Shown: piece by piece, positions 4,461 through 43,432 of the stretch
Layout: each line of letters opens with the position of its first letter
Position numbering within the stretch: position 1 is the stretch's first letter
Origin: a virus
Strand: one strand, 5' to 3'
DNA length: 64,000 bases
IMG/VR virus record: IMGVR_UViG_3300050120_000074
Span: 1-64,000 of that record
The notes under the pieces: generated by a model
Databases searched by the model: none
Seen by the model: only the letters and a program-made list of their open reading frames with translations
What the model was told of the DNA's origin: nothing
Made by a program: the position numbers and the translations under genes

Positions 4461-4463
4461 TCT

Positions 4464-7039: not shown

Positions 7040-7299
7040 GCGAAGCCACTCTCGTCGATAGGCTGGATAGCCTGATCAATGTGCTGCAAGCCAATAGCAT
7101 CCCGCTTGAATCCAGGTGGGTCGATGTAGACGGTATCGGCGCTATCCTGGGCTTCAGCCGGAACTATGTGCAGAACAAGATCACGGTTCGCCCCGACTTT
7201 CCTAGGCCAATGCGTCTCGGGGATAAAGGGCATCCCCGCTGGTCAGCCCAGGAAATTCAAGCCTGGGCCAAGCTTCAGCAGGATGCTCCAGCGCACTAA
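7036..7299 (+). CDS. xis: Excisionase / AlpA-like DNA-binding protein
   Basis: ATGA coupling. VDVDGIGAILGFSRNYVQNKITVRPDFPRPMRLG...RWSAQEIQAW fits the AlpA/Xis HTH pattern. Adjacent to int. Confidence 0.65.
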   Translation: MSEATLVDRLDSLINVLQANSIPLESRWVDVDGIGAILGFSRNYVQNKITVRPDFPRPMRLGDKGHPRWSAQEIQAWAKLQQDAPAH

Positions 7300-8285
7300 T
7301 CCAGACGGGCGGCGATAGTTGCCGCCTCTTCTCTGAAGTAAATCATAAGGCTCCTGGGATCGCGGTGGCCGATCATCTTGGCCAGTTCCAGAACATCCAG
7401 CTTGCGGGCCAGGCGCGTCAGTGCCGTCGCACGCAGATCGTGGAAGTGCAGGTTGCTCAGCTTGATCCGGTGCTTGGCCTTGCGGAACAGCGCATCAGCT
7501 GACGACTGAGAAACCTTGAATACCTTGTCGCCCCTTCCCCGCATCAGATCCAGAATCTCAATGGCTCGCTTCGACAGCGGCACCTCCCTTCGATCCAGAT
7601 TCTTCGTGGTGCCGTCCAGCAGCTCGATGTAACGCTTTCCCGCATGAACCCGAGCCCATTCCAAGCCGAACAGCTCACCGGCCCGCATAGCCGTCTCCAG
7701 GGCTAGCAGCATCGCCAGCGCAACGTCATGCTGCATCGTCTCCGGCCTACCTCCGAAATAGCCAAGCGCCTCGCAAAGCCGCTGGGTCTCGTCGTCGCTG
7801 ATAATACGGGTGCGCGGGCGCGCCTCGGGCGGCTTGCTGACGTCGTCCATCGGGTTGACCTTCAGCCAGCGCCACTCCTTGCGAGCGATCTCGAACACGG
7901 CTCGAAGCAGGTTCATGTCGCGGCGGACACTGGTGCCCTTCACCTGCTTGAGGCGCTGATCACGCCAATTGGCGATTTCCTCGGGCTGGATGTAGGCGAT
8001 GGGGCGCTCGACGAAGGGAAGCTCGCGCATGAAGCGCTTGAGGCGCACTTGCTCCCAGCGGTAGCCTCGGCGCCCTGGTGTAACGTTGGTGTAAAAACGA
8101 AGGAGCGCGGCGTGCATCGAGTTATTGTCGGCGGCGAAGATCGGTTGGCCGGTTTCGATTTCGGCCTCGCGCTGGTTTGCCCAGAAAATTGCTTCTGCTT
8201 TGGTCCGGAAAGTTTTTGTTGCGCGTATGCCACGCTTGAGGACCTGCGCGCGCCATTGATCGCCGCGCTTAGTGAAGGAAGCCAT
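7296..8285 (-). CDS. int: Tyrosine recombinase / phage integrase
   Basis: MASFTKRGDQWRAQV arm-binding-type N-terminus. C-terminal catalytic region HFHDLRATALTRLA...GHRDPRSLMIYF. Stop overlaps the xis stop convergently. Confidence 0.9.
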   Translation of the reverse strand: MASFTKRGDQWRAQVLKRGIRATKTFRTKAEAIFWANQREAEIETGQPIFAADNNSMHAALLRFYTNVTPGRRGYRWEQVRLKRFMRELPFVERPIAYIQPEEIANWRDQRLKQVKGTSVRRDMNLLRAVFEIARKEWRWLKVNPMDDVSKPPEARPRTRIISDDETQRLCEALGYFGGRPETMQHDVALAMLLALETAMRAGELFGLEWARVHAGKRYIELLDGTTKNLDRREVPLSKRAIEILDLMRGRGDKVFKVSQSSADALFRKAKHRIKLSNLHFHDLRATALTRLARKLDVLELAKMIGHRDPRSLMIYFREEAATIAARLD

Positions 8286-8342
8286 GCTGATTCCGTCCGT
8301 GGAATTGGTGTGATTCTTGGTGTAATGCACACCGGCTATAAG

Positions 8343-11221: not shown

Positions 11222-11339
11222 ATGGGGTCTCGCTAAGCGTTTGGCACCTCGAAAAGGAGGAGTGCAAACCAATTAATTTGGTCTCTCTGGCTTCAGATTG
11301 TGAAGGCGTAGAGCCATCAGACTGGATTCACATTTCCGA

Positions 11340-15696: not shown

Positions 15697-17307
15697 TTAC
15701 GTGGTACGCACGATGTTTTGGGTGGAGAAGATTGCGCGTGTCGTCCCATCGTACGCTACCGAATATGTGTTCGTGAAAGCGTCAATCCGATCCGTGTTGC
15801 GCGTGCAGGTGAAAATGAACGAACGACCGCCAAGCTCGTTGGTGATGTTCGTCCAGCCAGCAGTTTCCGCTGCCGTGAGCAAGTTGCCCGCGAACTTGAC
15901 CATTTTCGGAATGGCTACGTTCAGCGGCAGCTGGATCACTTCGTTGCCGTATGCCGCCAACTGATCGTCGATAAACGTGGACATATCAACCACGGATTCC
16001 AGCTTGGTCAGGCCGGTGGTCTTAGCCAGGGTCAGCGAATCGGTGAAGACATAGCTGGACCCAGCCGAGTATTTCTTGAGAATGACCGGATTGACCTTCG
16101 CGTCTGCCAACTTCGACAGCTCGGAATCGGTCGGTGTGTATTGCTGAACTACGCCAGTGCGAGTAATCGGATACGAGCTGCCAGCAATCGGGTAGTTTTT
16201 CGGCGCCAGGCCATTGTCATCCATTTGCGCGTTACGGGCACATGCGTAGCCGACTTTGATGCCCGAGGTGCCGATGTAGTCCTTGCCGCCGTTGACCGGA
16301 TCAGTCGCGATCAGTGGAGCCCACTGAGCCATCGCGTACGTCGTGTCCTGGTTTAGCGTGCCCATCCATGCGATTACTTCAGTCGGCGTGAAACGGCCAG
16401 GTACGTCGAAACGCATCTTCCGGTTCGTCGCAAAACACATAGCGATCATCTGAGAGATGAAAGCCTGATTCTCAGTACCGCCGCTCAGCAGATAGTCCCA
16501 GTCGTACTCGGTATAGCGCAACTGATTCAGAGCGGTCTGATAGTCGCTAGAGATATAGGTAGTTGCACCTTCGGTGAAGTACGACAGGTTCGCGCTGACC
16601 GCCTTCGCATTACCATTTGCGTCTTCGCCGTAGCAATTGGCCGTAGTCGGAACGGAAACGGTAGCGCCGACAACCACCTGCACGGCATCAGTGGCAGCCG
16701 CGATAACGCTCGGGAGGAAATACGAGTTACCGTAATCGTCCTTCGCGTTCTCATCCAGCGAGCCCGTAAAGCTGTAGAGTTGCACGCCGGTAGAGACATC
16801 GAGCAAGCGCAAGCGGACGACATCAGTCGCGATAGCGGTGCCCGTGTTGTCAGTAACTTCAGGGGCATACAACTCCATCGTTACACCATCGTTGAAGCAT
16901 TCCAGGTGCGTGACTTGAAGCATGTACGAGGTTGGGGCCGTGGTAGCGACAGACCATGCCACGGTGCCAGTGGTCAGCACTGCGTACATCGGCGACAGCG
17001 CATACCCGGTAGCCGAAATCAGACGTGCGATGGTGCCAGACTGAGCGCCTAACGAGAAGGTCTCGTAGGCTTGCACATAGGCCTCATTCAGACGATTGAT
17101 CGTCGTCGAGGCTGTCGGGCCAAGGTAGCGCGCGAGCGTGTCGCTGGTGACTTGGAACGCCTTATCAATGCGGCCCCGAGTGAAGCGGCCAGCCAGCGCG
17201 AAAGCTTGGTCGGTGTTGTTCGAAACGAAGCCACCACTGGCATCGTTCGTCGGGTTCATCTGATAGCCAGGCTGGGAGCCAAGGCTACGGGTGAAAGTCG
17301 TGCTCAT
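15697..17307 (-). CDS. Tail sheath protein
   Basis: 536 aa. C-terminal half (GTSGIKVGYACARN...NPVILKKYSAGSSYVFTDSLTLAK...FTCTRNTD) has the sheath-family pattern and size. Confidence 0.7.
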   Translation of the reverse strand: MSTTFTRSLGSQPGYQMNPTNDASGGFVSNNTDQAFALAGRFTRGRIDKAFQVTSDTLARYLGPTASTTINRLNEAYVQAYETFSLGAQSGTIARLISATGYALSPMYAVLTTGTVAWSVATTAPTSYMLQVTHLECFNDGVTMELYAPEVTDNTGTAIATDVVRLRLLDVSTGVQLYSFTGSLDENAKDDYGNSYFLPSVIAAATDAVQVVVGATVSVPTTANCYGEDANGNAKAVSANLSYFTEGATTYISSDYQTALNQLRYTEYDWDYLLSGGTENQAFISQMIAMCFATNRKMRFDVPGRFTPTEVIAWMGTLNQDTTYAMAQWAPLIATDPVNGGKDYIGTSGIKVGYACARNAQMDDNGLAPKNYPIAGSSYPITRTGVVQQYTPTDSELSKLADAKVNPVILKKYSAGSSYVFTDSLTLAKTTGLTKLESVVDMSTFIDDQLAAYGNEVIQLPLNVAIPKMVKFAGNLLTAAETAGWTNITNELGGRSFIFTCTRNTDRIDAFTNTYSVAYDGTTRAIFSTQNIVRTT

Positions 17308-17717
17308 TGCGCATCTCCTGCGGCGGCGGGCGCTGTAACTTCTTTGACCGAAACAGGCACGGCCTGTGCAACCGGCTGGACCGGTGCTTGCTGAGTGGCT
17401 GCCTGTGCAACTGGCTGCACAACTGCTGCGACCTCAACGGAAGCGATGGCAATCGGATCGTCGCCCTGCACCGAAGCCATGAACGCCAGGTTTTGCAGGG
17501 TCTCGTAGAGATCGCTCGGGCGCTTGTACGTCAGCTCGCCGGTTTCGCCAGGTTTGAGGAAAACATGCGTGCGATTGCCGGTGACCAGCAGAGGGCGAAT
17601 TTCACGCCGACTCTTGAAGATCACTTTGATCGGGTACGCAGTGCCAGCGGCGATCAGCTTGTCGATCAACGCTTGGGCGTTATCCACATCGCCGTTGCCT
17701 ATTTGAATCGAATTCAT
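17304..17717 (-). CDS. Small beta-domain protein with Ala/Pro/Val/Gln-rich C-tail
   Basis: The globular N-domain resembles the C-domain of the next gene. ATGA coupling. Confidence 0.5.
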   Translation of the reverse strand: MNSIQIGNGDVDNAQALIDKLIAAGTAYPIKVIFKSRREIRPLLVTGNRTHVFLKPGETGELTYKRPSDLYETLQNLAFMASVQGDDPIAIASVEVAAVVQPVAQAATQQAPVQPVAQAVPVSVKEVTAPAAAGDAQ

Positions 17718-18259
17718 TCGGTCACCTCGACCTTGATAAGTTGGCCGTGCATAGCCATTTTTTCGTTTGCGAGAGTTACCAAGCTGAGGTGCGGGCCTTC
17801 GGCCATCTCGACAGTTTTGGATTCGCCCGGCATGAGGATCGAGTCGATCTGCGGCAACGATTGGCGCGATGCCGTCTCGTTGGTAACCGTTACCATCACC
17901 GGATAAGTGATCGATTCGTCAGCTTCAGATGCGGTTTCTGAATTGACCTGCGCCTCATCAGTTGGCGCCGACGCCGCTGCCGATGCAGCCGCTTTCGAGG
18001 CTTTGGTAGCCTTGACCGGTGCTGTCGGAGCAGGGGCTTCAGCTACTGGATCAGTCGCTTCAGTCACTGGAATATCGGTTGTGGCCGCAGTTTCTTCGGG
18101 CACAGCAGCAACATCGGTCGCCGTTGCGGATTCGGTTGCAGGTGCTGCCTCGGTAGTCCCGGAAGCATCAGCAACCTCGCTTGCGTCGGTGGCGGTAGCC
18201 GCAGCGGACGAATCCGCTGCAACCTCTTCCGCTGCCTTTTCAGTCGTGGTGGCAGCCAT
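17714..18259 (-). CDS. Protein with Ala/Thr/Glu-rich disordered N-region and small C-terminal beta domain (decoration-like)
   Basis: About 115 aa of low complexity, then ITYPVMVTVTNETASRQSLPQIDSILMPGESKTVEM. Immediately downstream of the putative capsid gene. Confidence 0.5.
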   Translation of the reverse strand: MAATTTEKAAEEVAADSSAAATATDASEVADASGTTEAAPATESATATDVAAVPEETAATTDIPVTEATDPVAEAPAPTAPVKATKASKAAASAAASAPTDEAQVNSETASEADESITYPVMVTVTNETASRQSLPQIDSILMPGESKTVEMAEGPHLSLVTLANEKMAMHGQLIKVEVTE

Positions 18260-18272
18260 TTACATCACCCCT

Positions 18273-19943
18273 TTACGAAGTCGGGAACAGGTTCGAAACG
18301 GTGATCATGGCCGCGCCCAGGGCCGAAGGCTGGTGCGGGTTCACTTGCGTGAAGTTACGGGCATACAGCGCGTTCTGCTCCTTCAGATCGCTGTTGAACG
18401 CCAGGCGCAGGACAGTCAGCGGCACCGCGTCACCGAAGACAATCGGGTTACGCGCAACCTGGGCCGACTTGCCGACGAGCAGCAGAGTGGCGCTGGTGGC
18501 GGTCTCGGTAACGACCTTCGGCGAGTAGTACACCTCATACATGCCGAACAGGCGCCCCAGGCGATAGATGGCTGGGCGAGCGGTCAGGCCGGACGGCACG
18601 AACAGCTCGGCAGGCAGGGATGGCAGCTGGGCGGCGACGTTCATCGGCACGTACAGGTGAGTACCGCCGTGGTCCATGGTGTCATTCGCCATCTGCTGCG
18701 AGCAGATGCCCAGGACGGTCGCGAAGTCCTGCCAGATCATGGCGCGGGTCTTCAGCGTCATCTGGGTGCTGTAGTTGAAGTTGAAGGTCTGCTGGTTGTT
18801 CACGGCGATGGACATCGCCTTGCGCAGAGCCAGGTAGTGACGTTCGTTCGCCGCTTGGTTGCGCATCGCGATCAACGATTCGGCGCCGAGATCAATGCCG
18901 ATTTCGTTGTTGTACTGGGTCTTCGTGTCCCAGGTCGTTGCGACCAGACCGCGCCATGCGCTGGCGTACAGCTTGTACGACTGCACTTCGGTGATCAGGT
19001 TCGGCGTCAGCGTCGGGTTGCCTTCCAGGTCGATGAAGCCTTCGGATTCGACGATGGTGCCGGTCGGCAGTGCAGGCGAGAACGCCAGGGCCAGGGCGCC
19101 GGTCGTGCGGGTGATCGTACCCGAGATGGTGTACGACACACCGGCGAGGGTCAGCGAGCCGGAGATCGGGCTGTTGGTAACCGATGCGGCTACATCGATG
19201 CTTTCCTTGGCAGCGAACAGGCCATTGATGAACACCATGGTACGACCGCGCAACAGTGGCGCAGGCGTAGAGCCGTCAGTTGTGAAGGTCGCGGTGCCGG
19301 TCGCCAGACCAGTAGCCAGGGTGACAGGAATGCGGCGCTCGGACGTCAGGTAGGCGTCACCGGAGTTGATACCGTCCAGCAGTTGGCCATTGGTATAAGC
19401 ACCGTAGGTGGAACCGGCCTGGTGGCTGACGATACCCAGCAGGGATTCGTTGGAGCCGATATCTGCGGGCAGATACACGGCCCACGGAGTGGCCTCGGCG
19501 ATGGCCTGGGTAATAGCCACGACGATGCGGTTTGGCTGCGAGGCGCCTTCGTCCGAGTGGACGGAGGTGCCGATGCCGTCGAGCAGTTCGCGGCCCGGTT
19601 TTGCAGCAGCGATACCTTGTGCAATGGCGGAATCCATGACGTCTGCGGTCGGCAGATGGCCGTGAGCGCTTTCGAATTCTTTCATGCCGCGCAGGACGGA
19701 GTCGAGGATGGTTACGTGCAGCTTTTCATCGACCCCTGCGAACAGAGACTCCAGTCGAGCCGGGATCTTCGTCGCTTCAGAGCTACCGCTTGCCGACACA
19801 CCGTCGAGCAGGTCCTTGTTGAAGTTGTGAGCTTTGGAAGTATCCAGGCTGCCGTTCGTGCCGCGCGAGGCATCGAAGGCATCATAGAAGAAGTCTTCCG
19901 TCTTATTCAGCCCGCTACCGGGGGTGTAGATTGCTTTCGGCAT
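18273..19943 (-). CDS. Putative major capsid protein
   Basis: 556 aa from MPKAIYTPGSG with a GAGAG RBS. Preceded by a terminator and 5-prime UTR, followed by decoration-like genes. Assignment by context only. Confidence 0.45.
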   Translation of the reverse strand: MPKAIYTPGSGLNKTEDFFYDAFDASRGTNGSLDTSKAHNFNKDLLDGVSASGSSEATKIPARLESLFAGVDEKLHVTILDSVLRGMKEFESAHGHLPTADVMDSAIAQGIAAAKPGRELLDGIGTSVHSDEGASQPNRIVVAITQAIAEATPWAVYLPADIGSNESLLGIVSHQAGSTYGAYTNGQLLDGINSGDAYLTSERRIPVTLATGLATGTATFTTDGSTPAPLLRGRTMVFINGLFAAKESIDVAASVTNSPISGSLTLAGVSYTISGTITRTTGALALAFSPALPTGTIVESEGFIDLEGNPTLTPNLITEVQSYKLYASAWRGLVATTWDTKTQYNNEIGIDLGAESLIAMRNQAANERHYLALRKAMSIAVNNQQTFNFNYSTQMTLKTRAMIWQDFATVLGICSQQMANDTMDHGGTHLYVPMNVAAQLPSLPAELFVPSGLTARPAIYRLGRLFGMYEVYYSPKVVTETATSATLLLVGKSAQVARNPIVFGDAVPLTVLRLAFNSDLKEQNALYARNFTQVNPHQPSALGAAMITVSNLFPTS

Positions 19944-20050
19944 TGATCTATCTCTCAAGTGAAGAACGCCCACAGCGGGCCTTGTATCTAGACCCATCCT
20001 AAATGCTTCCGAAGACCTCCCTTAGTTGTCCTTTCCGAAAGTTCGGCAGA

Positions 20051-20081
20051 CAAAAAAGCCAGCACTCGGCTGGCTTGTTTT
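20051..20081 (-). terminator. Intrinsic (bidirectional) terminator upstream of the capsid gene
   Basis: AAGCCAGC-actcg-GCTGGCTT flanked by an A6 run and a T-run. Confidence 0.6.
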
Positions 20082-20098
20082 GCGCAACAATATTGCTC

Positions 20099-20524
20099 TC
20101 AGGTAGCGCACTCTCCTAGGAGCGCCTTAACAGCCAAGTCGAGCGCAGGATCTTCGCTTCCGACCCACGAACTTTCCTGGACCAGTTCGACGATCTGCTG
20201 GGTCAGCTCGCCCCGCTCAAGGTCAGTGACCGGCCCCTTGAGTCGTTCAACTATCTCCGCGAGCACAGCGCACGGATCGGCACCTTCGACGGTGAAAACC
20301 GAATCCAAGACAGCGGCCTCTGGCCGGATTGGTGACAGCAGACCAAGAACGCTAGCCGCCTCCTTAGCCGCGCGAATACGCTCCATTGGCGGCATGGGGT
20401 TTCCGAGTGCAACCAGAGATTTCCCGAGAGTGCTGGCCAGCCGGATGCGATCCAGCGGTTGAAGGATAGTGCTGATCTGATCGGTCATTGCAGTTTGACT
20501 CATGAAGTAAAAATGATGACCCAT
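20099..20524 (-). CDS. Hypothetical 141-aa protein
   Basis: Start at MGHHFYF has a GGAAAGG RBS. The longer ORF would begin inside a hairpin. Confidence 0.45.
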   Translation of the reverse strand: MGHHFYFMSQTAMTDQISTILQPLDRIRLASTLGKSLVALGNPMPPMERIRAAKEAASVLGLLSPIRPEAAVLDSVFTVEGADPCAVLAEIVERLKGPVTDLERGELTQQIVELVQESSWVGSEDPALDLAVKALLGECAT

Positions 20525-20566
20525 GGTCACCTTTCCGAACGACTGCTCGGCCCAGCTATTTCCCAT

Positions 20567-20589
20567 GAAAAGGCCCACCGAGGTGGGCC
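20567..20589 (-). terminator. Strong hairpin with short T-run (weak terminator or attenuator)
   Basis: GGCCCACC-ga-GGTGGGCC, then TTTT on the minus strand. About 25 nt after the 506-aa gene stop. Confidence 0.35.
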
Positions 20590-20614
20590 GAGAAAGACGC
20601 TCTACCGTTCAGCT

Positions 20615-22135
20615 TTACCCTTGAGCAGCAGCCTTTGAAATCATGAAGTTGGCGTAAGCGACAGAAGCTGCCTCGATAAGCGCGAGCACTTCAGGGTCGG
20701 ACGAATAAGCATCGTTCACTACCTGCAAGCGAGCCTCAAGCCCTTCAGATAGGAAGTCGGCATTGGCGGACAGCAGTCCCTGGAGGAACGCCTTCGCTTC
20801 GGCCAGCGCGGAATCAGAGATAGATGCGCCAGGGTCGATAGCGACTTCGGCGACGATGTCGGCAACAATCTCGGCAGGAATATCAAGGGCGCCCACCACT
20901 TCAGCTACGGGCTCAGCGACCTCGGTCACTACTTCTCCAACTGGTAACGCGGCAGCAGTCAGCGGCTCTGCAACGATCTCGGCGCGCAGGCGCTCGATCT
21001 CAGCGTCGAGATCGGATAGAGCCTGCTCTTTGCCGGACACACCGGTCTTCAGCACGTCAAGCGCGACCAAGCGATCAGCCAGGTCTGCATTGACCCTCAA
21101 GAAGCGGGCGCTGTTGGATTCGGCCAGGCGCATCACACGCTCGGCAATCGTCTCGATTGCCAGGTTGTTTTCCGACTCCGCATCGACCAGGGCCGTGACG
21201 TCCTTCTTGTTGAGCATCCAGCACCATGCCAACAGCATGTCGCTATCGGAGCGACTGGAATCACACAGCCAGACGCTGATGGTCTGGCCGTCGCTCAGCT
21301 CAAAAACGGCGGCGATATTGATGGCGTCGCGCTGCAAGAATGGCTCACTGATCTGCATAGCGAGCACTTGCAAATCACCCGTGGCGTTCAGGGCGTCCTG
21401 AATATTCCGCATGCGCTCAGCCACATCAGCAGGCGCCACAGCCATCGAATCTAACAGTTCGCGGCTGTCGGCGGCCTCAAGAATGTCGGCGAGCGAAACG
21501 CTATCCAGCAGCAGCTGACCCTGGTCTTCGCGGCGCAGGGCATAGAGGATATTGGCGATTCCGGTGCCAATGGGCTTGGCACTCTTGTCCCAGGCGATAT
21601 TTTGCATTGACGTGTTTCCATCGGTAGAGAGTTGACTTGCGCGAAGCGGCCCGGACTTATCGCCCGCTTTCAGCCACTGCTTGAATTGGATCATGGTGCA
21701 TGGCACAAGGCTGCCCAGGCCATACCAGCCAGGACCGAAGGCGCTGAGATATGCGTTGCGCGCGTCGTGCTCGCTGGGAAATCCAAGCATGACCTTCCCT
21801 TCGTCGAATCTGCCATCCTCGAAAACCTGGTTGATAACGAAGACCTGCTGACTTTCCGGCTGTGGCCCAAGGTAGACATCCAGCTCATCGCCGTCAGCGC
21901 CCATGACGCCCTCAAAATACCCGTAGTCGTTGGCTTGAAAATTACTCCAGGCCTTTCCTTGCTGATCAATCCCTGTGCGATAGCTACCGCGCGGATTCTC
22001 GATAGCGATGGGCATGCCCTGGATCGTTGCGCGGCCTTTCTTGTACTTACCACTTTCCGCCTGCGCAGGCGTAGGCTCGCCCGTTTCATATGCGGTCGAG
22101 TGAGATGCCATTTGCTGCCGAATAAAATCGCTCAT
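20615..22135 (-). CDS. Inorganic-pyrophosphatase-fold N-domain fused to a long coiled-coil/Ala-rich protein
   Basis: MPIAIENPRGSYR...ANDYGYFEGVMGADGDELDVYLG...FDEGKVMLGF parallels PPase IEIP..KYE / NYGY..DGDPVDVLV / D.K..AV motifs. Confidence 0.65.
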   Translation of the reverse strand: MSDFIRQQMASHSTAYETGEPTPAQAESGKYKKGRATIQGMPIAIENPRGSYRTGIDQQGKAWSNFQANDYGYFEGVMGADGDELDVYLGPQPESQQVFVINQVFEDGRFDEGKVMLGFPSEHDARNAYLSAFGPGWYGLGSLVPCTMIQFKQWLKAGDKSGPLRASQLSTDGNTSMQNIAWDKSAKPIGTGIANILYALRREDQGQLLLDSVSLADILEAADSRELLDSMAVAPADVAERMRNIQDALNATGDLQVLAMQISEPFLQRDAINIAAVFELSDGQTISVWLCDSSRSDSDMLLAWCWMLNKKDVTALVDAESENNLAIETIAERVMRLAESNSARFLRVNADLADRLVALDVLKTGVSGKEQALSDLDAEIERLRAEIVAEPLTAAALPVGEVVTEVAEPVAEVVGALDIPAEIVADIVAEVAIDPGASISDSALAEAKAFLQGLLSANADFLSEGLEARLQVVNDAYSSDPEVLALIEAASVAYANFMISKAAAQG

Positions 22136-22144
22136 TCCGACAGA

Positions 22145-22456
22145 CTACCGGCGTTTCGCCGCATTGCTTTTCGCGCTTTCCGACACGCACATAAAGCCGC
22201 CATCGAGCACCCGACCAAGCTCTTCTGCCTCATCCTCCATCCCCTTCATGATGCGACTTATCGTCTCATCGATATCGCGAAGTCGGATGGCGAAAGGGGT
22301 ATTGAATTCGCTGATCAGCTTGAAGTGATCGCCGAGCCGGGAGATCCCGATCAGTGTCAGACGAACAAGCCAGCGCTTCGGTTTCGACAGGTCAGAAGGT
22401 TGCGTATTCCGGTACAGTGTCACCGGGCGTAAGCGACGAAACCGTACAGCAATCAC
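22145..22456 (-). CDS. Small hypothetical protein (GTG start)
   Basis: 103-aa ORF between the GHKL-like and PPase-like genes. Start uncertain. Confidence 0.35.
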   Translation of the reverse strand: MIAVRFRRLRPVTLYRNTQPSDLSKPKRWLVRLTLIGISRLGDHFKLISEFNTPFAIRLRDIDETISRIMKGMEDEAEELGRVLDGGFMCVSESAKSNAAKRR

Positions 22457-22492
22457 GACTTGTCATCCTCGAACATGATGCTAGCCATCGCG

Positions 22493-23611
22493 TCAGAATG
22501 GCACATCATCCGAAGCCCCGTCACATTTTTTGATCTGCTTATAGGGCTCCGATTTCCAGCAAGCTGCCTGTTCGAGAAGTTGCTTGAATCGGGTTTTAGG
22601 CAGCCTGGATAGATATCGCTTGTTCTTTTCAAACCACTCGTCCAGCACTTCCTGCGGGGTCTTCAGCTTCTCCATGTAGATGGTGCGCGAGGAGTAACCG
22701 CCCGCGCTGCTGACGTTCGAGTGGAAGGCCGACGACCCGGTGAACGCCACCGACTTGGCGCCTGCCGCTTTCAAGCGCTTGGCTTCTTCCTCGGAGCGAG
22801 CGATCAGGGCGCCCCCATGCTTTTTCTCGAACAGCTTGAAGCAGGTATCGCGCAGCGCTTGCGGCGCGCCGTAGTGCGAATATTCGAAGTCCGGCACCTC
22901 GGCCTCGGTCTCGCGCGCGATCAGCTCCCATTCCTGTGTCTCGAACCACATGTCCTTGGCCACGAGCTGGATGCTGAAGTTATCGACGGTCTGGCGGTCG
23001 CGTTCGAGATCCATGTATTCCGGCTTGACGCTGTACCCGTACTTGAGCTTCGTGTCGCACACGAACAGGCCGCCGACGTACAGCTTGCCGGGGCGGCTCG
23101 GGAGTATCAAACCCTTCGATGTCTGCTTGGCATCGAGAATCTGTTCCTGCATAAGCAGGCAGCTTTCCTTGATAGCCTGGATGTCGCCGGGGGTAAGGCC
23201 GCTGATCACGAATTGCAGGTCGGCGCCGTCCTCTTCGCCAAGCGTCTCGTCGATCCTCAGACACTCCTCCTCAAAGCTCTCGTGATAGGCGAAGGTCGGC
23301 GTCCAGATCAATGGGCCGTTGTTGCACCTCACGGTATAGCCATCACGCACAAGGACCAGCATAGCGAGCTTGAAGCCTTCGCCGAAGCTTCCAATGGCCT
23401 CGGCCACATCGGCCTTCGAAGTCGCCCCAAGTAGCAGATGGCGAGCCGACAGCGTGATTCCGCGACTGAGGATCGACAGTGACGACTGCGAGAACTGATA
23501 TTCAAAGGGTGCGGCACTATCAATAGCATTCTGGAGCAGTTCGCGAATCGCCTCTTTCATGCCCCAGCGGCGGACATAGGTACGGGCAAGTCCAAGGTCG
23601 TAGCTCTTCAT
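22493..23611 (-). CDS. GHKL (Hsp90/MutL/MORC-type) ATPase-like protein with degenerate G1 box
   Basis: N box IRELLQNAIDS. G2 box AIGSFGEGFKLAMLVLV, as in Hsp90 IGQFGVGFYS. The DxGxG position reads SRGITL. Confidence 0.65.
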   Translation of the reverse strand: MKSYDLGLARTYVRRWGMKEAIRELLQNAIDSAAPFEYQFSQSSLSILSRGITLSARHLLLGATSKADVAEAIGSFGEGFKLAMLVLVRDGYTVRCNNGPLIWTPTFAYHESFEEECLRIDETLGEEDGADLQFVISGLTPGDIQAIKESCLLMQEQILDAKQTSKGLILPSRPGKLYVGGLFVCDTKLKYGYSVKPEYMDLERDRQTVDNFSIQLVAKDMWFETQEWELIARETEAEVPDFEYSHYGAPQALRDTCFKLFEKKHGGALIARSEEEAKRLKAAGAKSVAFTGSSAFHSNVSSAGGYSSRTIYMEKLKTPQEVLDEWFEKNKRYLSRLPKTRFKQLLEQAACWKSEPYKQIKKCDGASDDVPF

Positions 23612-23886
23612 TGAGGGTTACCCTGTTGAATGGAGCGCAACGCTTCCGCGATTTGCAATTCAATTTCAGTCGCCTTGCGGTCGAGCCTGGCTGCCGACTC
23701 AATATCTTCGCGATAGGCCTGGCGGCTGTCGGCGTATTGAGCACTGTTCCGCTCGGACTTGGCCTGCTCCCGAAGGCTAGCTATTTTTGCGCGTGCTTCT
23801 TCGATCTCTACCTGCGTCATGCTTCTTACCCTTTCGGTTGGAATATGCGTGATTTCACGCCGCGTGCATTCGCTCATACTGAGCAC
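23608..23886 (-). CDS. Small coiled-coil protein coupled to the GHKL-like gene (start may be 23820)
   Basis: ATGA overlap with the downstream gene. MTQVEIEEARAKIASLREQAKSE coiled coil. AAGGG RBS before the 23820 start. Confidence 0.45.
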   Translation of the reverse strand: MLSMSECTRREITHIPTERVRSMTQVEIEEARAKIASLREQAKSERNSAQYADSRQAYREDIESAARLDRKATEIELQIAEALRSIQQGNPQ

Positions 23887-23955
23887 TGCTTACAACTATA
23901 CGCTAACAGATTACTAACTATTCGATAAGAATTGCAACCACAAGAGGGGCTGTCC

Positions 23956-24453
23956 GTGGAATTTTTTGTTTCGGTAAGCGGCTATGAGGGTCAGCCGGTA
24001 AGCGTGATCGGCGGCCTTGATGAGGCCACGAATGTGATGGGCATGGTTGGCAAGCTGAAGGATTTCGAAAAAAAGCGCCTCGAAAAAAGGCCGGATATCT
24101 CCATCGTGAGCAATCTCCCGCTAGGGGACCTGGACTTCCTTTTTCGCGAAGAGCATTTGCGCGAGGGGATCACGGCGTACTTGAATCGCAAGCTGCTGAA
24201 TACCATCAATCTAGCGCCAACCATCAAGCTATTTGATCCGGGCTCGGCAATTGAGAAAGATGATATCCGCGAGGGTCGGCAGACCTATAGCATTCTCGCG
24301 ACCATCACGAACGGTCAGATGGCTATCCTGATCGCCTGCGCCTTCTGCGAACAGCAGGCCAAGATCATGAGCAATCAAGTCTTCCTTGACGAGATGAATG
24401 ATCTGTACGAACAGGGCGGCGACAGCGACCTGTACGATATCTATACGATCTAA
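23956..24453 (+). CDS. Lone opposite-strand hypothetical protein (moron-like)
   Basis: GTG with AGAGGGG about 6 nt upstream (track ORF starts at TTG 23932). Only credible plus-strand gene in about 55 kb of minus-strand genes. Visibly lower GC. Confidence 0.55.
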   Translation: MEFFVSVSGYEGQPVSVIGGLDEATNVMGMVGKLKDFEKKRLEKRPDISIVSNLPLGDLDFLFREEHLREGITAYLNRKLLNTINLAPTIKLFDPGSAIEKDDIREGRQTYSILATITNGQMAILIACAFCEQQAKIMSNQVFLDEMNDLYEQGGDSDLYDIYTI

Positions 24454-25604
24454 GGGATCGTGTTGCGCAGTTGATTAGTATCGCCAGGACCGTCGCTACC
24501 GGTGCTCGGATTCGGCATCTCCGAGGCGCCAGCGTCCTTGTGTGGCTGCTCGACCGTATCATCAGTCGTCTGCCCTTCAGCAGGTTTCGGAACCGCGACA
24601 GGATCGACATCGTCCAGAACTTCGTTGGGCTTGTCGTCAGCCACGGTTACCGGCTTCACCATTCCGTTCGTGTCTATCTCGACCTGCAACGGATCGTCAC
24701 TCTCGGGAGATTTAGGCAGATCGACCGTTGATTTTGTGTCATCCACGATAGCGACTTTATCGATCTCTGCACCGGTCAGCCCTGGCGGCGCTTCCGTCGC
24801 ATCCATGATTTCCTTGGCGCCACTTACAGGGCTCTTGTCGCCAACCTCATCTACATCGAGGAAGCCCCCCTCGATCTCCAGAACGACGGCTTGCTCGGTC
24901 GCAACAACCTCAGCATTGGCTGAGGTATCAGCGGGGGCGATGGCGCCATCGGTCGTGATCGTTACCGGATTCGGTTCGTCACTGCCTGGCAGGCGTGGCA
25001 GGCTTACAACTGATTTGACATCATCCTTCTTGACGATAGCCAGGGACTCGTCAGCAGCAGTGGCAGCGGCCAGCGCCTCAGGGGTTGGAGAATCCTGGGT
25101 GATCACCGTCTTGACTTCGTCGAGCACTGGCTCGCCACGCAGCGCCTTGAGTTCGCCAAGGGCAGCTTGGCGTGCAGCGATCTCGCCATCCAGATATTCA
25201 GCGCGGCGCTCAAGGGCTTCGCACATTCCAGGGATCGACGTAGTGATCGACTTAGGCAGTTCGGCCTTGAGACGATCCTGATCCGCCTGGAACGTTTGCT
25301 CATTGGCTTCGGCGGCTTCGGCGATATTGCCGACCAATACTGCCAGGTCGTCGCTCATCTCGACCGGGATCGTATTGCCGTTAAGCAGGACCGCGCAGAG
25401 ATCACCAGATTTCGTAACGCGCAGCGTGACGGTCTGACCGCTGAGTAGCGAAAGCTCAGCCTCTCGAAAAGACACGTTGTTGCTGCGACGGAGCGCGCTC
25501 GCAAACTTTGTTTGGACGACTTGTTGACCGGCGCGGCCCATGATGGATGCTACGCGCTTGATGGCCTTGATCGCATCAGCCTGAGAATTGAAATCGAGTA
25601 GCAT
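24450..25604 (-). CDS. Coiled-coil protein with duplicated acidic C-terminal modules
   Basis: Shares the ELS..GQT(V/I)(T/S) motif and a following coiled coil with the 506-aa protein. Internal duplication KSVVSLPRLPGSDEPNPVTITTDGAIAP / KSTVDLPKSPESDDPLQVEIDTNGMVKP. Confidence 0.55.
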   Translation of the reverse strand: MLLDFNSQADAIKAIKRVASIMGRAGQQVVQTKFASALRRSNNVSFREAELSLLSGQTVTLRVTKSGDLCAVLLNGNTIPVEMSDDLAVLVGNIAEAAEANEQTFQADQDRLKAELPKSITTSIPGMCEALERRAEYLDGEIAARQAALGELKALRGEPVLDEVKTVITQDSPTPEALAAATAADESLAIVKKDDVKSVVSLPRLPGSDEPNPVTITTDGAIAPADTSANAEVVATEQAVVLEIEGGFLDVDEVGDKSPVSGAKEIMDATEAPPGLTGAEIDKVAIVDDTKSTVDLPKSPESDDPLQVEIDTNGMVKPVTVADDKPNEVLDDVDPVAVPKPAEGQTTDDTVEQPHKDAGASEMPNPSTGSDGPGDTNQLRNTIP

Positions 25605-25676
25605 TGGGAAGCACCTTTGATAGCTATGCATTGAGTTTGCATGAGCGCCAGCATGCGCCCGATACGTTATTTCCGG

Positions 25677-26228
25677 TTACCTGATCGGCGGGCTCGTCGG
25701 CGATCCTGGCGATGTACTCGTATGTTCGTGGTTCTGCTGACTGATGCCATCGCTCGTCAAGTCGCCACCGGTCTGAGTAACAGGACCTTGCAATGCGATT
25801 GCAGCGGCGATCTGAGTGATATTGCTCGCCGTCAGCGTTATGCTCGTACTGCCAACGGTCAGCGTTATTGACTCGGTTGCCGTAAGCGATATCGTCTGAC
25901 CTGTCTGATTCAATTGATCATCAGCGAGCAGCTCGATGTTCGTGTGCTCCCAGCGGCGATATCCGGCCTCATTACCAGCTTCAGGGGTCCTATAGCCAGT
26001 CACGACAGGGTATCGAACGTCGCCACATTGGAACTGGACCCAGCATAGATCGGCGGATAGGATTCGCTGCTCAGTGCGGGATGGGCGATCACCGACCGGG
26101 ACGCTTAGAACGGCCTCTGCCGAAGACGTTCCGGTGAGCCCAGGAATATTGACCAGGACTATGCGCGAATCGCCACCAAGGTACTGGGTGATCACTGCCG
26201 GATAGATGCCGCCATATGACCGGCTCAT
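25677..26228 (-). CDS. Baseplate spike / gpV-Mu gp45-like protein
   Basis: IYPAVITQYLGGDSRIVLVNIPGLTG OB-like N-terminus, and C-terminal ...QQNHEHTSTSPGSPTSPPI typical of gpV-type spikes. Confidence 0.55.
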   Translation of the reverse strand: MSRSYGGIYPAVITQYLGGDSRIVLVNIPGLTGTSSAEAVLSVPVGDRPSRTEQRILSADLCWVQFQCGDVRYPVVTGYRTPEAGNEAGYRRWEHTNIELLADDQLNQTGQTISLTATESITLTVGSTSITLTASNITQIAAAIALQGPVTQTGGDLTSDGISQQNHEHTSTSPGSPTSPPIR

Positions 26229-27121
26229 GACGAGAGCACTCCGCACCAAAACCTAGAATTGCTGTTGATCGCACCCTCTAGCGAGTGGTCGAAAAAGTGC
26301 GCCGCAGTCATCACCACCACGTTCTCGCCGTTGACGGTCAGGAGATCTCCAGCCGAGATCTCCTGTGCCAGTTGCGAATCGATGATGTGACGGCGCAGCA
26401 GGACGCGCCCCAGGTTGCGCAGGACGCGCTCAGTCTTGCGCGGGACGTAGATCGACCTGCGTGTAGGGTCGTTGCTCCCATTTACCGTAGAGCCGTCTGG
26501 AGCCGTACTGTAGAACGACGGGACCTGATGCTTTTCAAGGAAGTCGCTTTGCGTGTGTCCAGTGCTCGCGATCTGCCCGATATCGTCGATTGGCGCCTGC
26601 TTGAACAAGTCTGGCAAGCGTTTGACATAGAGCTGCTTATTCGTGAGGATCAGCGCTGCGCACTCTTCCTGACATGCCATGGCGATTGGATAGCTAGCTG
26701 CCTGCCCAGCTAGGCAACTGAACCGCTCGACAGCCATGTCAGCCGCCACGGCAACCTTAGCGCCGCTTGAGCGGTACATAGAGCCAATGGTCTGGTGCGT
26801 AGCGATGATCGGTGTCGTACGCGGCTTAGCTACCCCCGAGCAGCTTGCCAGGGCAGCGATGACACGGTACGTCTGAACAGATTTTCCGCCTTGCAGTTGG
26901 CCCGTAGGCGGATCGCGGCGCGACCAGAGGATCTCATACTCAAGATTCTCGCGCCCCGTCCAAACTGATTTTCCGACTGCAAGATCCGTCTCGATGCCAT
27001 CAATCAAACGCACGGTCATTTCAAGCGTTCTCGGGACCGGCGCAAGGTCACTGCGCAAAACCCAGCGCATGAGGAGGTCACCAGGGAGCTGCTTTCCATT
27101 CTCGATCAAATAGACGTTCAC
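26225..27121 (-). CDS. Baseplate hub / gpD-like protein (tentative)
   Basis: About 298 aa immediately upstream of the spike gene. GTGA coupling. Call by position and size. Confidence 0.4.
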   Translation of the reverse strand: MNVYLIENGKQLPGDLLMRWVLRSDLAPVPRTLEMTVRLIDGIETDLAVGKSVWTGRENLEYEILWSRRDPPTGQLQGGKSVQTYRVIAALASCSGVAKPRTTPIIATHQTIGSMYRSSGAKVAVAADMAVERFSCLAGQAASYPIAMACQEECAALILTNKQLYVKRLPDLFKQAPIDDIGQIASTGHTQSDFLEKHQVPSFYSTAPDGSTVNGSNDPTRRSIYVPRKTERVLRNLGRVLLRRHIIDSQLAQEISAGDLLTVNGENVVVMTAAHFFDHSLEGAINSNSRFWCGVLSS

Positions 27122-27882: not shown

Positions 27883-27954
27883 GGGGTCTTATTCCGATTT
27901 TTGTAGCATCTACCTTACCGCGTGAAGGGGGCGCCTTCCTTGGCTGCTTTCCGG

Positions 27955-40435: not shown

Positions 40436-41272
40436 TTAACGCAGGCGCTCAAAGAAGGCATCAGCTTGGGGGGTAGGGACGGGCTCCTCGCGAGGCCGCT
40501 GGATTCGCGGCAGGTCTACAGTGAGAAAGTCATGCGCGTTATCGAACAGCGCCGAGTTGCCGTGAATCGGCAGGCGCCCCACATCGAGGACGCCGTCGAG
40601 AATTGCTTCAGTCTTGCCAGTTTTCTTCGACAGCATACTGATCAGCTCGGTATTCTCAGCCGTCAGGCTCTCAAGGATCGCCTTCATACTGTCGATTTCC
40701 CTCTGCTTAACGTCCAGCATCTCGTTGACGGTCTCGAACAATGCATCGCGGTCGGCGACCTCGTCGAGGATCGCGATATCTTCGCCGCTCACGCTATCGA
40801 GCACATAACCGCGATTCGTGTTGTAGTTCGGCTCTTTGACCAGATCAAAGCCGAAAAAGTCGGTGGCAAGGTCGCGACCATTAACCGCACGCGCGCGAAT
40901 CGCCGACGAGAACCCATAGGCTTTGCTGCCGTAGACGCGAGCTGCAATACGGCCAGACGAGGTGTCGAGAAATTCGATTTCATGCTCGATATCACCATTA
41001 GGGTGCGCCTTGATCGATGTCGTGCGTATGGCGGGCTCAAGCGAAAACTGTTTGCCGTTGAGAATGCCGCCCTCCGCAGGATCGAGCCCAAACTTCTCGC
41101 GAGGCCAGTGGCCGAAGTAGCCGAACATGTCGCCGCTCTTGACCCGCTCCTGCACGGAGCGCCCGTTGATCACACGCATGACCGAAGGAATATCGAAGCT
41201 GCGATCCTGGCCTCGGAACATCCGGTCGCGCTCAGCAACGTTGAATCTGATCAGGCCGGTGGTCTTACGCAT
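40436..41272 (-). CDS. Putative head maturation protease/scaffold-like protein
   Basis: Immediately follows the portal gene with an 8-nt overlap. C-terminal half is coiled coil. Assignment mainly positional. Confidence 0.35.
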   Translation of the reverse strand: MRKTTGLIRFNVAERDRMFRGQDRSFDIPSVMRVINGRSVQERVKSGDMFGYFGHWPREKFGLDPAEGGILNGKQFSLEPAIRTTSIKAHPNGDIEHEIEFLDTSSGRIAARVYGSKAYGFSSAIRARAVNGRDLATDFFGFDLVKEPNYNTNRGYVLDSVSGEDIAILDEVADRDALFETVNEMLDVKQREIDSMKAILESLTAENTELISMLSKKTGKTEAILDGVLDVGRLPIHGNSALFDNAHDFLTVDLPRIQRPREEPVPTPQADAFFERLR

Positions 41273-42851
41273 TACTCGCTTCCTCTTCATTCACCTGCTT
41301 GGAGACAGGCGACGTACTGAAACTATCGTCACCAAAGCCACCACCCATCATTGACTGGGGCGGCTTCGCCTCCTTGATGCCTCGGGCGATCTTCTTCGCG
41401 TCTTCCTCATCGAAGCCCATCTCGGAAGACAGCAGGCTGACCATGGTGTCCTCTGGCAGCCCGAGATTTCGCATCGAATCCAGAACAGTCATCAGCACTG
41501 CACTGCCATTGATCTTCCGCTCGTGAGTCTCGGTATTCTCAGCTTCCAGGGCGCTGATCGAGCCGTAGAAATTGATCTCGTATGGGCGGTCGCCGTCCTC
41601 CCACACAAATCCCCACTTCGACCATGTGTGTAGGTCAATCAGATAGTGGAAGAATGAGGACAGCGCGGTCCGGATCATTCGGCTGCGCTCGGCTGCCTGA
41701 GCGGATACACGGAAGAAGCCACCATCCCCGAGCCCACCCGACAACTGATCAGAGAAGCCAAGCAGGGCCAAGTCGATGCCGAGTGCGCCCGCCAGCAGCT
41801 TGGCTTGGAGCATCACGTCGTCGATGGTCATGCCGTTGGTTGCCGTGGCGCCTTGGAAGCTAGAGATGCTGGTGACCTGCTTCTGGCCGCTGACCGGGAG
41901 AACGTGATACTGACGCGTCGTGACCGGCTTGTTTTCGCGCACCGCCTTCTCGGCGACTTCCTTCGACTTGGTCAGCATCTTGTTGATGCTGGCCATGAAT
42001 GTCTTGCGCTGCTGGAGCGACATGCCTTCGGTCTCGACAGTGATCAGGTTCTCGTCGATGGTGCCGAGGATGCGCTGGCCTACCAGGCCAAGCAGCGAGG
42101 CGCGAAGACGCTCATATGGCTCCTCGGCCTCGTACAGAAACGATCCGCCGACCATGGCTGGCATGGCTGGAAGATTCTGGATGTCGTCCTCTTCGAGGTG
42201 GTAGCGGTAGGCTTTCTCGATAGCCTTCATCTGCGGAATCCACAGAAGGCGAGGCATTTTCATACGTGCCATCTGGGTTGGCAGCAGGCGCACCTGCTGC
42301 TTCTCACCGCTAGAAACTACATAGCCCACGGTGGCGTTGCCCTTCTCATATGGCTGCACCATGGGCGGGTACACCATCTCGTTGCAGCTGATATCGATCA
42401 GGCCCTCGCCGTCCTTCAGGTACACCCTGGCGTAGGAATCTCCGAAGCCAGCCGCGTTGAACGAAACACCATGCGCCTCGCGATTGAAAATAGGCGCGCA
42501 GTTAAGCTTGAGATCATTCACATACTTCGCGTATTTCTCACTACCAGGCTTCACCTCGATGAAGACGGTATCCCCGGTGGTCTCATGGCCTCCGAGCGCC
42601 TGAGTGACGTGCAAACGCAATGCAGTTGCAATGATGGGGTCTTCCATCATGCGCGCGAACTTCTCATAGATCATTACGCGGGAGCGGGCAACGCGGTCGC
42701 CAGAACCCAGCAGCATCGACACGCTGACCGTGTCATAGCCCATCATCGTATCGGCAGAATCAACCTGGGCAATGGCCCGGTCACCATCCACCAGCGCCTG
42801 CGCCAGTTTCTTGGCCCGCGCCCACATGCCACTTTCAGTCGAGTCAGCCAT
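41265..42851 (-). CDS. Putative portal protein
   Basis: 528 aa. Position downstream of TerL and upstream of the scaffold-like gene. Acidic C-terminus. Confidence 0.55.
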   Translation of the reverse strand: MADSTESGMWARAKKLAQALVDGDRAIAQVDSADTMMGYDTVSVSMLLGSGDRVARSRVMIYEKFARMMEDPIIATALRLHVTQALGGHETTGDTVFIEVKPGSEKYAKYVNDLKLNCAPIFNREAHGVSFNAAGFGDSYARVYLKDGEGLIDISCNEMVYPPMVQPYEKGNATVGYVVSSGEKQQVRLLPTQMARMKMPRLLWIPQMKAIEKAYRYHLEEDDIQNLPAMPAMVGGSFLYEAEEPYERLRASLLGLVGQRILGTIDENLITVETEGMSLQQRKTFMASINKMLTKSKEVAEKAVRENKPVTTRQYHVLPVSGQKQVTSISSFQGATATNGMTIDDVMLQAKLLAGALGIDLALLGFSDQLSGGLGDGGFFRVSAQAAERSRMIRTALSSFFHYLIDLHTWSKWGFVWEDGDRPYEINFYGSISALEAENTETHERKINGSAVLMTVLDSMRNLGLPEDTMVSLLSSEMGFDEEDAKKIARGIKEAKPPQSMMGGGFGDDSFSTSPVSKQVNEEEASNA

Positions 42852-43425: not shown

Positions 43426-43432
43426 GTCAGTC

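Follow-up and report, generated by a model that had tools for sequence, protein, structure and literature searches.

The closest described counterpart of the locus presented here is the Dar system of phage P1, in which 55 DarA-Hdf pairs were seen by cryo-electron microscopy on the inner capsid surface, at penton-hexon junctions (PMC12810830). These pairs are held by alpha-helix domains, contact the DNA and are gone from DNA-emptied heads, and the N-terminus of DarA is cleaved by Pro (PMC12810830). Loss of Hdf or DarA results mostly in small heads and leaves the other Dar proteins unpackaged, the two proteins recruit further proteins into the head, and both are needed against the type I systems EcoA and StySA (PMC12810830). 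The P1 Hdf-DarA pair is structural, morphogenetic and anti-restriction at once. Here we analyse a region with seven open reading frames (ORFs) at positions 20099-25631 of IMG/VR virus record IMGVR_UViG_3300050120_000074, of which positions 1-64,000, hereafter the window, make up the whole stretch of DNA studied. We consider it probable that this region belongs to a temperate myophage distantly related to P1 and is its Dar-type locus for internal head proteins, into which mobile cargo has been inserted.

Two protein domains are central to this comparison. InPase has been described as specific to the phage type of polyvalent proteins, with pyrophosphate removal or attack on nucleotide-derived molecules proposed as its roles, and it is carried by the BcepF1 portal and by other portal fusions (Iyer et al. 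2017, PMC5512222). The phage clade of this domain is marked by the lack of a beta-hairpin insert between strands 1 and 2. The conserved residues of the second domain, DarA_N, are an aspartate and an N-x-basic motif, written 'D ... NX+' (PMC5512222). The combination of both domains and its likely role were already predicted in 2017 (PMC5512222) and the family has been named by NCBI; current concepts are left unchanged by our analysis. In the literature searched, we found no experimental work on InPase-DarA_N proteins.

One of the seven products, of 506 aa, has precisely this architecture. It consists of an InPase domain (residues 24-156), a linker, a DarA_N domain (228-342), a long helix (327-389), an acidic linker and a C-terminal helical bundle (439-504). 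InPase (PF18823) is matched over model positions 2-135 of 135 (7.8e-50, 168.7 bits versus a cut-off of 26.8) and DarA_N at 7.2e-20 in Pfam. BLASTP aligns the protein with P1 DarA at 35% identity over 107 aa (1e-14), and its residues 274-384 align to DarA 132-246 of PDB chain 9ukm_I (5e-10). An AlphaFold2 (AF2) model built on 33 homologues has a predicted local distance difference test score (pLDDT) of 82.6, with low confidence in the acidic linker, and displays an InPase barrel, an alpha+beta DarA_N domain and a helix of ~60 residues. The best Foldseek matches of this model in the PDB are the P1 DarA chains 9vz0_I and 9ukm_I, after which the list consists of family-I pyrophosphatases at probability 1.0; together with the full-length InPase match, this bears out the pyrophosphatase fold recognized in a preliminary description of the region, which was made from the sequence alone. 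The protein thus combines a DarA_N domain with an adjoining helix, the features by which we define the DarA type.

Conservation within the family bears on the function of both domains. Residues Y31, E46, R53, Y71, D81, D83, D86, D111, E112 and K114 of InPase are invariant among 33 family members, and the motif DGDELDV at residue 81 fits the classical pyrophosphatase signature of PROSITE; the domain is therefore probably active. In DarA_N, D282 and N309-K310 are present, and these positions are invariant or nearly so in the family. At least 60 database proteins share the InPase-DarA_N architecture, at ~40-45% identity over ~75% of the length, from hosts that include Burkholderia, Paraburkholderia, Collimonas, Nitrosomonas and Ideonella, and members are named 'defense against restriction DarA-related protein' in NCBI/UniRef. 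An alignment-based scan detected the architecture on at least 159 viral contigs, mostly of 60-100 kb, unlike a single-sequence scan of viral contigs with the 506-aa protein, which returned no match. While the window's protein shares the architecture and the conserved catalytic and DarA_N residues of this family, it is among its shortest members: most have 590-885 aa and the closest relative has 1111 aa, the variable middle part being cut down to the acidic linker in the window's protein.

An InPase of the same subfamily forms the C-terminus of the gp19 portal of Pseudomonas phage Pa193 (PDB 9B41), chain 9b41_L of which is matched by InPase residues 35-164 (9e-32). The carrier is the portal in Pa193, whereas here it is a DarA-type capsid-lining protein. 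The paper reporting the Pa193 structure (PDB 9B41) does not discuss the InPase domain. This fusion shows that InPase is carried inside capsids via attachment to a head component.

The second Dar-type product has 393 aa or, if translated from M10 at position 25604, 384 aa. The latter start is better supported, because the Shine-Dalgarno-like AAAGGTG precedes this second ATG and homologues align from there. The protein matches PHROG 1620 ('Hdf-like antirestriction', 4.3e-24, profile positions 17-162 of 200), Pfam DarA_N (1.2e-8, 35.2 bits versus a cut-off of 27), P1 Hdf in BLASTP (29% identity over 94 aa, 1e-9) and the P1 Hdf chain 9ukm_H of the PDB (1.7e-7). DarA_N (residues ~20-120) is its sole globular domain and is followed by a helical segment (~120-170), the arrangement of a single DarA_N domain and a capsid-binding helix that we regard as typical of Hdf. 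The remainder (residues 166-393, encoded by 24450-25135) is an acidic repeated tail of net charge -33, rich in D, V, P, A and T, which is made up of two copies of a ~100-residue unit (self-alignment score of 98 versus 42.7 +/- 7.2 for shuffles). Most relatives have Hdf-like proteins of ~160 aa without this tail, and it is shorter in the closest one, contig L003, whose protein has 304 aa. Judged by these matches, the 393-aa protein is an Hdf homologue.

The surrounding genes point to a P1-like backbone. The 574-aa capsid protein shows 45% identity to the major capsid protein of Xanthomonas phage Rb1 and 22% identity to P1 gp23 over 82% of its length (tblastn), and it matches PHROG 1014 at 1e-118. 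When proteins of the P1-like phage JL22 were compared with the window by tblastn, homologues of portal (1.5e-47), Pro (26% identity over 274 aa, 2e-18), BplA, Sit, Tub, PmgB, PmgG and BplB were found, and PHROG matches add sheath, tube, baseplate and tail fibres. The Pro gene lies directly downstream of the portal gene and overlaps its 3' end, the same as in P1; a gp23-like capsid protein and a Pro protease, which together we take to characterize a P1-type head module, are thus both encoded. On its other side, the region is bordered by the gene of a 190-aa spike, which matches TIGR01644 (phage P2 V) at 1.7e-8, below the family cut-off, and weakly Pfam DUF2345, and which is syntenic with baseplate genes across all relatives examined. 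The spike and capsid flanks named in the preliminary description are hence confirmed.

A tyrosine integrase is encoded at 7296-8330, and recombination exonuclease genes are present at 3224-6177. No P1-type RepA or ParAB was seen in the part of the window examined. The nearest genomic relatives are integrated prophages of Undibacterium, Pigmentiphaga, Collimonas, Methylococcaceae and others, all with ~45% capsid identity, and this P1-like group seems to be integrative rather than plasmid-borne. A nucleotide search with positions 18000-27000 found no match in the phage collection. The phage is a distant, temperate relative of P1 and has no close sequenced relative.

Gene order among relatives separates core genes from cargo. 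Thirteen viral contigs carrying a related capsid gene were compared. Eight of these share one arrangement, which runs from baseplate and spike through a short Hdf-like gene (~160 aa) to capsid and sheath, and nothing substantial separates the Hdf-like gene from the capsid gene. Its place directly between spike and capsid genes in these eight relatives marks the Hdf-like gene as core. All long contigs among the capsid relatives also carry a darA-like gene, the position of which varies. In six loci (L033, L042, L043, L056, L072, and L078), it follows homologues of the window's genes at 43433-44518 and 42931-43425, and in L072 it is also upstream of the portal gene; in the window, it is the portal gene that directly follows these two genes (region 41265-44518). 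In L026, L028, L003/L004 and the window, the darA-like gene is found 2.3-9 kb downstream of the Hdf-like gene. Judged by these varying positions, the darA-like gene has changed place between portal module and hdf/capsid site as the group evolved.

The contents of the gap between hdf and darA differ among these loci, which is the kind of variation that the preliminary description had proposed to look for. In the window, the gap holds the 173-aa gene, the 92-aa ORF, the GHKL gene and the 103-aa ORF; in L003/L004, it holds a 165-aa gene (the same as the 173-aa gene), the GHKL gene and ~14 small genes, including an S24 peptidase; in L026 and L028, it holds unrelated ORFs. In relatives, the darA-like gene is followed by genes for large proteins, one of which (L026, 8458-11151) contains the polyvalent LPD1 domain (5e-19). 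In Xanthomonas phage Rb1 (L001, PQ569993), a 'capsid assembly protein' encoded upstream of the capsid gene (3482-5764) ends in a PBECR1 nuclease domain (7.9e-7). Thus, what had been described as one uniform island is made up instead of two core genes, one of them relocated, plus inserted cargo. We also observed that in L007 the spike homologue is followed by a 100-aa PAAR-like ORF (7528-7830; 3.7e-4, below the Pfam cut-off) and that a 422-aa ORF without known family stands between this ORF and the Hdf-like gene; the spike-Hdf gap of L007 is another small cargo site.

The two Dar-type genes resemble those of P1 in several respects: both products carry DarA_N followed by a long helix, their best matches among solved structures are the P1 Hdf and DarA chains, and hdf precedes darA on the late strand, within a P1-like backbone that includes a Pro homologue. 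The P1 operon used for comparison has the order lydA-lydB-hdf-darA-ddrA-ddrB, and in the window, too, hdf comes before darA on one strand. The differences are nevertheless substantial. Identity to the P1 proteins is about 29-35% over ~100 residues, the N-terminal InPase takes the place of the propeptide that Pro cleaves from P1 DarA, and the Hdf-like protein, in which the conserved D and NX+ are missing, ends in a 230-residue acidic repeat tail. In addition, upstream holin genes are missing, and hdf and darA are split by 2.3 kb of foreign cargo, in a locus situated between spike and capsid genes.

Taking P1 as a guide, we infer the following course of events, in which packaging, ejection, anti-restriction activity, the substrate of InPase and the timing of cassette expression are all conjectural. 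The Hdf-like and DarA-like products would pair via their helical segments and, during prohead assembly, attach to the inner capsid face near the vertices, where the pairs would help to fix head geometry and contact the packaged DNA. The Pro homologue is a candidate processor of the DarA-like protein, and InPase may be released by such cleavage, by analogy with P1. At infection, both proteins would leave the capsid with the DNA, so that the capsid would deliver some tens of copies of the InPase-bearing enzyme into the cell. There, the DarA_N parts would shield the entering DNA, and InPase would most likely act on pyrophosphate or on a nucleotide-derived phosphoanhydride. The cassette of the 173-aa and GHKL genes would be expressed inside the cell and most likely not packaged.

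Several observations weigh against the interpretation of the region as a Dar-type locus with inserted cargo. The NCBIfam equivalog model of P1 DarA (NF052326) is matched by residues 274-382 only, at 36.4 bits versus a cut-off of 350, similarity to P1 DarA is confined to ~110 residues, and no counterpart of the P1 DarA region that binds the penton is detectable in the 506-aa protein; on these alignments, the latter is best considered a domain-level homologue of DarA, not an equivalog. In the Hdf-like protein, neither the aspartate nor the basic residue of the DarA_N motif is kept, S64 and NGN being found instead. The Hdf-like protein of L003 likewise has S64-type and N-G-N residues, while the remaining relatives and P1 Hdf keep the aspartate and all except Rb1 keep N-G-K/R. 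No DdrA, DdrB, DarB or Ulx was found by tblastn with JL22 queries at E <= 1 in the 64-kb window (64 of the 82 kb of the contig), apart from a chance-level Ulx match (E = 0.6). P1 DarB and Ulx are reportedly needed against EcoB and EcoK (Piya et al. 2017), and their absence here is a further point of this kind. Across the window, P1-type late promoters (a -22 box plus a -10) were sought and none was found, so that late co-regulation is conjectural; the promoter reading of the AT-rich region described below depends on two exact motif copies, and virion packaging or ejection in this phage is deduced from its genes.

An alternative view is that the Hdf-like and DarA-like proteins function essentially in head assembly, as auxiliary scaffold and as determinants of size, without any counter-defence role, and that InPase serves assembly or packaging. 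The Hdf-like gene adjoins the capsid gene in most relatives, the darA-like gene is part of the portal/head-morphogenesis module in other relatives, and P1 hdf and darA mutants yield mostly small heads (PMC12810830); the absence of DarB and Ulx from the window and the loss of conserved DarA_N residues from the Hdf-like protein also agree with this view. However, the P1 pair also protects against EcoA and StySA and exits the head with the DNA (PMC12810830), InPase is typical of phage polyvalent proteins judged to be injected (PMC5512222), and a conserved, apparently active hydrolase is hard to account for by assembly alone. Assembly and counter-defence roles are in any case mutually compatible, and we regard a role restricted to assembly as rather unlikely. 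The same evidence corrects the preliminary description, which saw no recognisable morphogenetic role in the region and called it non-structural: the 393- and 506-aa proteins are homologues of Hdf and DarA, which in P1 line the inner capsid and set head size (PMC12810830). It had held that clear homology to head-assembly factors would speak against injected effectors; such homology is indeed what these two proteins have, and the counter-defence reading survives for both.

The interpretation of the region as a Dar-type locus with inserted cargo leaves the cassette between hdf and darA to be explained. Its 372-aa protein matches PHROG 6077 (4.9e-94) and has 344 database homologues. Among 43 sequences, the N box residues E24, N28 and D31 and the G2 box G74-x-F76-G77-x-G79 are invariant, as is K81, and LERDRQTV at 202-209 is invariant except for Q207. 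A G1 box, D-x-G-x-G, the aspartate of which binds adenine, is not evident by eye between the N and G2 boxes, where S49, L59, L61, G62, and K66 are near-invariant. The AF2 model (pLDDT 87) has TRAP1/Hsp90, topoisomerase VI-B, GyrB and sacsin as Foldseek matches in the PDB (probability 0.85-1.0). With the protein sequence, Pfam gave nothing even at E = 5 and no GHKL model at threshold, the NCBIfam sacsin N-terminal domain was matched at 2.9e-5, below its cut-off, and a PDB search returned noise only. In BFVD, Foldseek retrieved uncharacterised phage proteins of ~300-440 aa, with template modeling (TM) scores of 0.73-0.77 for the best three, and next dozens of rIIA proteins (~1e-8, TM ~0.4 on the query). 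Aligned with T4 rIIA by hhalign, the family gave E = 0.0017 and only 15% probability, and the 372-aa protein and T4 rIIA align at SKA[DE]xxxxIGxFGxGxK around the G2 box. The Bergerat fold of the model and the invariant N and G2 boxes uphold the earlier GHKL-like label, and the protein is predicted to be a true GHKL-fold ATPase of an uncharacterised phage family.

T4 rIIA protects against Rex exclusion by lambda lysogens. It consists of an N-terminal GHKL domain and a variable C-terminal domain, and has been referred to as a 'poorly understood counter-defense system' (PMC7824862). The fold of the 372-aa protein resembles rIIA N-terminal domains, but the protein is half as long (372 versus 725 aa), its C-terminal helical domain is not alike, and its gene has family-less neighbours (the 92- and 103-aa ORFs) and no rIIB-like one. 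It is thus without the ~700 aa including a C-terminal domain and the adjacent rIIB that would identify an rIIA. Family members were matched in 115 phage records, including Pseudomonas siphophages, Luteibacter phage Pluto, many Vibrio phages and Ackermannviridae-type phages; a few homologue records are labelled histidine kinase or HATPase, and one RIIA. In the loci inspected for context (a Pseudomonas prophage, three metagenomic phage contigs and phage Pluto), the GHKL gene is located among small early genes or near replication/recombination genes, never near Dar genes.

The other member of the cassette, the lone opposite-strand gene, encodes an acidic 173-aa protein (pI 4.5) that matches PHROG 4179, a family without function, at 4.3e-19. 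A 64% identical homologue occurs at the same place and in the same orientation in L003 and L004. The protein has no Pfam, NCBIfam or PADLOC match and no tblastn match in the phage collection, and a protein homologue search returned itself alone. Its gene and the GHKL gene are divergently transcribed from a shared AT-rich stretch, the GC content of which (0.32 over 50 nt, versus 0.564 for the window) falls in the lowest 0.05% of all 50-nt windows. This region contains TTAGCGTATAGTTGT, and an exact second copy of its 12 specified bases is located at 61654-61668(-), upstream of an operon that includes a RusA-like gene. The copies of the ~60-nt element at 61647-61707 and 23885-23945 (minus) have 37 of 61 bases in common, with the core TTAT(C/A)GAATAGT ... 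TTAGCNNNTAGTTGT; weaker copies are found at 46032-46046 and 934-948, and the motif is kept upstream of the GHKL gene in L003 (9815-9915). The element may represent a class of phage promoters or operators, and the divergent region is a putative promoter region for the 173-aa gene in one direction and the 92-aa/GHKL genes in the other. The preliminary description had counted the GHKL protein among the packaged ones, which is opposed by the early-gene arrays of its homologues and by the cassette's own AT-rich divergent region; we infer that the GHKL and 173-aa genes form an independently transcribed accessory module, not virion cargo.

One possibility is that the hdf-darA gap is a cargo hot spot and that the GHKL and 173-aa genes constitute a new counter-defence module, either one that acts against abortive infection like rIIA or a client that Hdf and DarA would load into the capsid; we consider this extension doubtful. 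A related, likewise doubtful idea is that capsid-delivered InPase destroys a nucleotide-derived immune signal rather than plain pyrophosphate. Still more speculative is that the 173-aa and GHKL insert is a prophage-expressed moron protecting the lysogen (through defence or superinfection exclusion) rather than a phage counter-defence. An opposite-strand gene with its own AT-rich promoter-like region within a late block is the classical layout of morons, the phage is temperate, with an integrase and integrated prophages as relatives, and GHKL/MORC-type ATPases occur in bacterial conflict systems. Conversely, the only PADLOC match among the seven products is that of the 506-aa protein to PtuA, of the coiled-coil type, the GHKL family is common in virulent-looking phages (Ackermannviridae-type and large Vibrio phages), and rIIA proteins, its nearest structural relatives with a name, act in favour of the phage (PMC7824862). 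We also considered the whole block as a prophage defence system and rejected this for want of any meaningful PADLOC match.

Finally, that all seven products are one late-transcribed set of packaged, injected counter-defence effectors, as initially suggested, is highly improbable: six of the seven ORFs are on the late-gene strand, in a block between late genes that is closed by a terminator, P1 Hdf and DarA bring further proteins into the head (PMC12810830) and polyvalent-type proteins occur near darA-like or capsid genes (LPD1 in L026, PBECR1 in Rb1), but one gene is oriented against the other six, the cassette comes with an AT-rich divergent region of its own, unrelated phages and prophages have GHKL homologues in arrays of early genes, the coding signal is weak in the 92- and 103-aa ORFs and the Hdf-like gene, which adjoins the capsid gene in relatives, is conserved core and not cargo. 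The suggestion of P1 Dar-type packaged proteins is therefore partly supported, being right in kind for the Hdf-like and DarA-like products, which show the homology, and unsupported for the other five.

All seven ORFs were located where they had been listed, six on the minus strand like the surrounding late genes and the 173-aa gene on the plus strand (Table 1). The codon-usage score is 0.28-0.35 bits per codon for the 393-, 173-, 372- and 506-aa ORFs (0.35 for the 173-aa ORF), moderate for the 141-aa ORF (0.15) and weak for the 92-aa (0.03) and 103-aa (0.07) ORFs. Inspection of the sequence confirmed that the stop of the 92-aa ORF overlaps the start of the 372-aa ORF as ATGA. The 92-aa ORF has no homologue, is slightly outscored on codon usage by one antisense frame and is missing in L003 and L004, where no more than 187 bp occupy the corresponding place; the 103-aa ORF has no family or homologue. 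Both may not be genes.

Table 1. Coordinates of the Dar-type locus, its flanks and the Pro homologue in the window
Feature	Position	Strand	Basis or remark
Baseplate spike protein, 190 aa, left boundary	25677..26249	-	TIGR01644 phage_P2_V, Pfam DUF2345
Hdf-like internal head protein, 393 aa or 384 aa	24450..25631	-	PHROG 1620, DarA_N
Lone opposite-strand gene, 173 aa	23932..24453	+	PHROG 4179, function not assigned
AT-rich divergent intergenic region, putative promoter region	23884..23945	.	GC 0.32
92-aa ORF, doubtful gene	23608..23886	-	ATGA overlap with GHKL start
GHKL (Bergerat-fold) ATPase (predicted), 372 aa	22493..23611	-	PHROG 6077, AF2 model
103-aa basic ORF, pI 10.3, doubtful gene	22145..22456	-	coding score 0.07
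DarA-like InPase fusion, 506 aa	20615..22135	-	InPase + DarA_N
Terminator-like hairpin right after DarA-like gene	20572..20589	-	hairpin energy
141-aa acidic ORF between two hairpins	20099..20524	-	159 aa from upstream GTG
Intrinsic terminator closing block, upstream of capsid gene	20050..20076	-	hairpin + T run
Major capsid protein, 574 aa, P1 gp23 homologue, right boundary	18273..19997	-	tblastn, PHROG 1014
P1 Pro prohead protease homologue	40436..41290	-	tblastn

The intrinsic terminator that had been placed at about 20051-20081 was also recovered, as a hairpin at 20056-20076(-) (-17.7 kcal/mol, z = -3.2) with a T run; its sequence over 20050-20076 is AAGCCAGC-CGAGT-GCTGGCTT followed by TTTTTG. 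A second hairpin, absent from the preliminary description, lies at 20572-20589(-) between the 506- and 141-aa ORFs (-17.1 kcal/mol, z = -2.6) and reads GGCCCACC-TCGG-TGGGCC followed by TTTTC. A scan for sigma-70 promoters gave a count not above that of shuffled sequence.

The 141-aa ORF enclosed by these hairpins has no family match, and an exhaustive HMMER search of 1.84 billion representative proteins retrieved only itself. It shows 30% identity over 91 aa (8e-6) to the N-terminus of a 627-aa ORF of L025, which follows the darA-like gene at the same position, and is possibly, as far as this alignment goes, a remnant of such a larger gene. In P1, ddrA follows darA; the 141- and 103-aa ORFs were both tried as DdrA and rejected, as neither has similarity to it at E <= 1.

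Two side observations concern the neighbourhood of the locus. Between the capsid and sheath genes, there are two genes without family match (17714-18259 and 17304-17717), the first of which encodes a 181-aa product of pI 4.1 with a long low-complexity, A/T/E-rich N-terminal half; this product could be a decoration or head-completion protein. Secondly, the motif YCGGAAR directly follows the stop codon of five minus-strand genes (25670-25676, 27948-27954, 42924-42930, 11333-11339, and 44881-44887), in the contexts TAA-CCGGAAA (twice), TGA-TCGGAAA (twice) and TGA-CCGGAAG (once). Its total count, 42 versus 33.8 +/- 6.5 expected, is at chance level, and we ruled it out as a general promoter motif; only its placement right after the stop codon, at 5 of ~55 gene ends, is unusual (binomial P ~2e-10), and a role in processing, reinitiation or termination context is conceivable.

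P1 is as yet the only phage in which the structure of the capsid-lining Hdf-DarA pair has been solved. Our comparisons indicate that the pair is conserved far beyond the enterobacterial P1 group, in prophages of Burkholderiales, Methylococcaceae and related bacteria, and that in this non-enterobacterial lineage it would routinely carry an apparently active pyrophosphatase into the capsid. They also flag the short phage GHKL ATPases as a widespread, unstudied family. The locus offers a simple system for asking what the InPase of polyvalent proteins does, and one in which the head-size and anti-restriction roles of Dar proteins may be separated.

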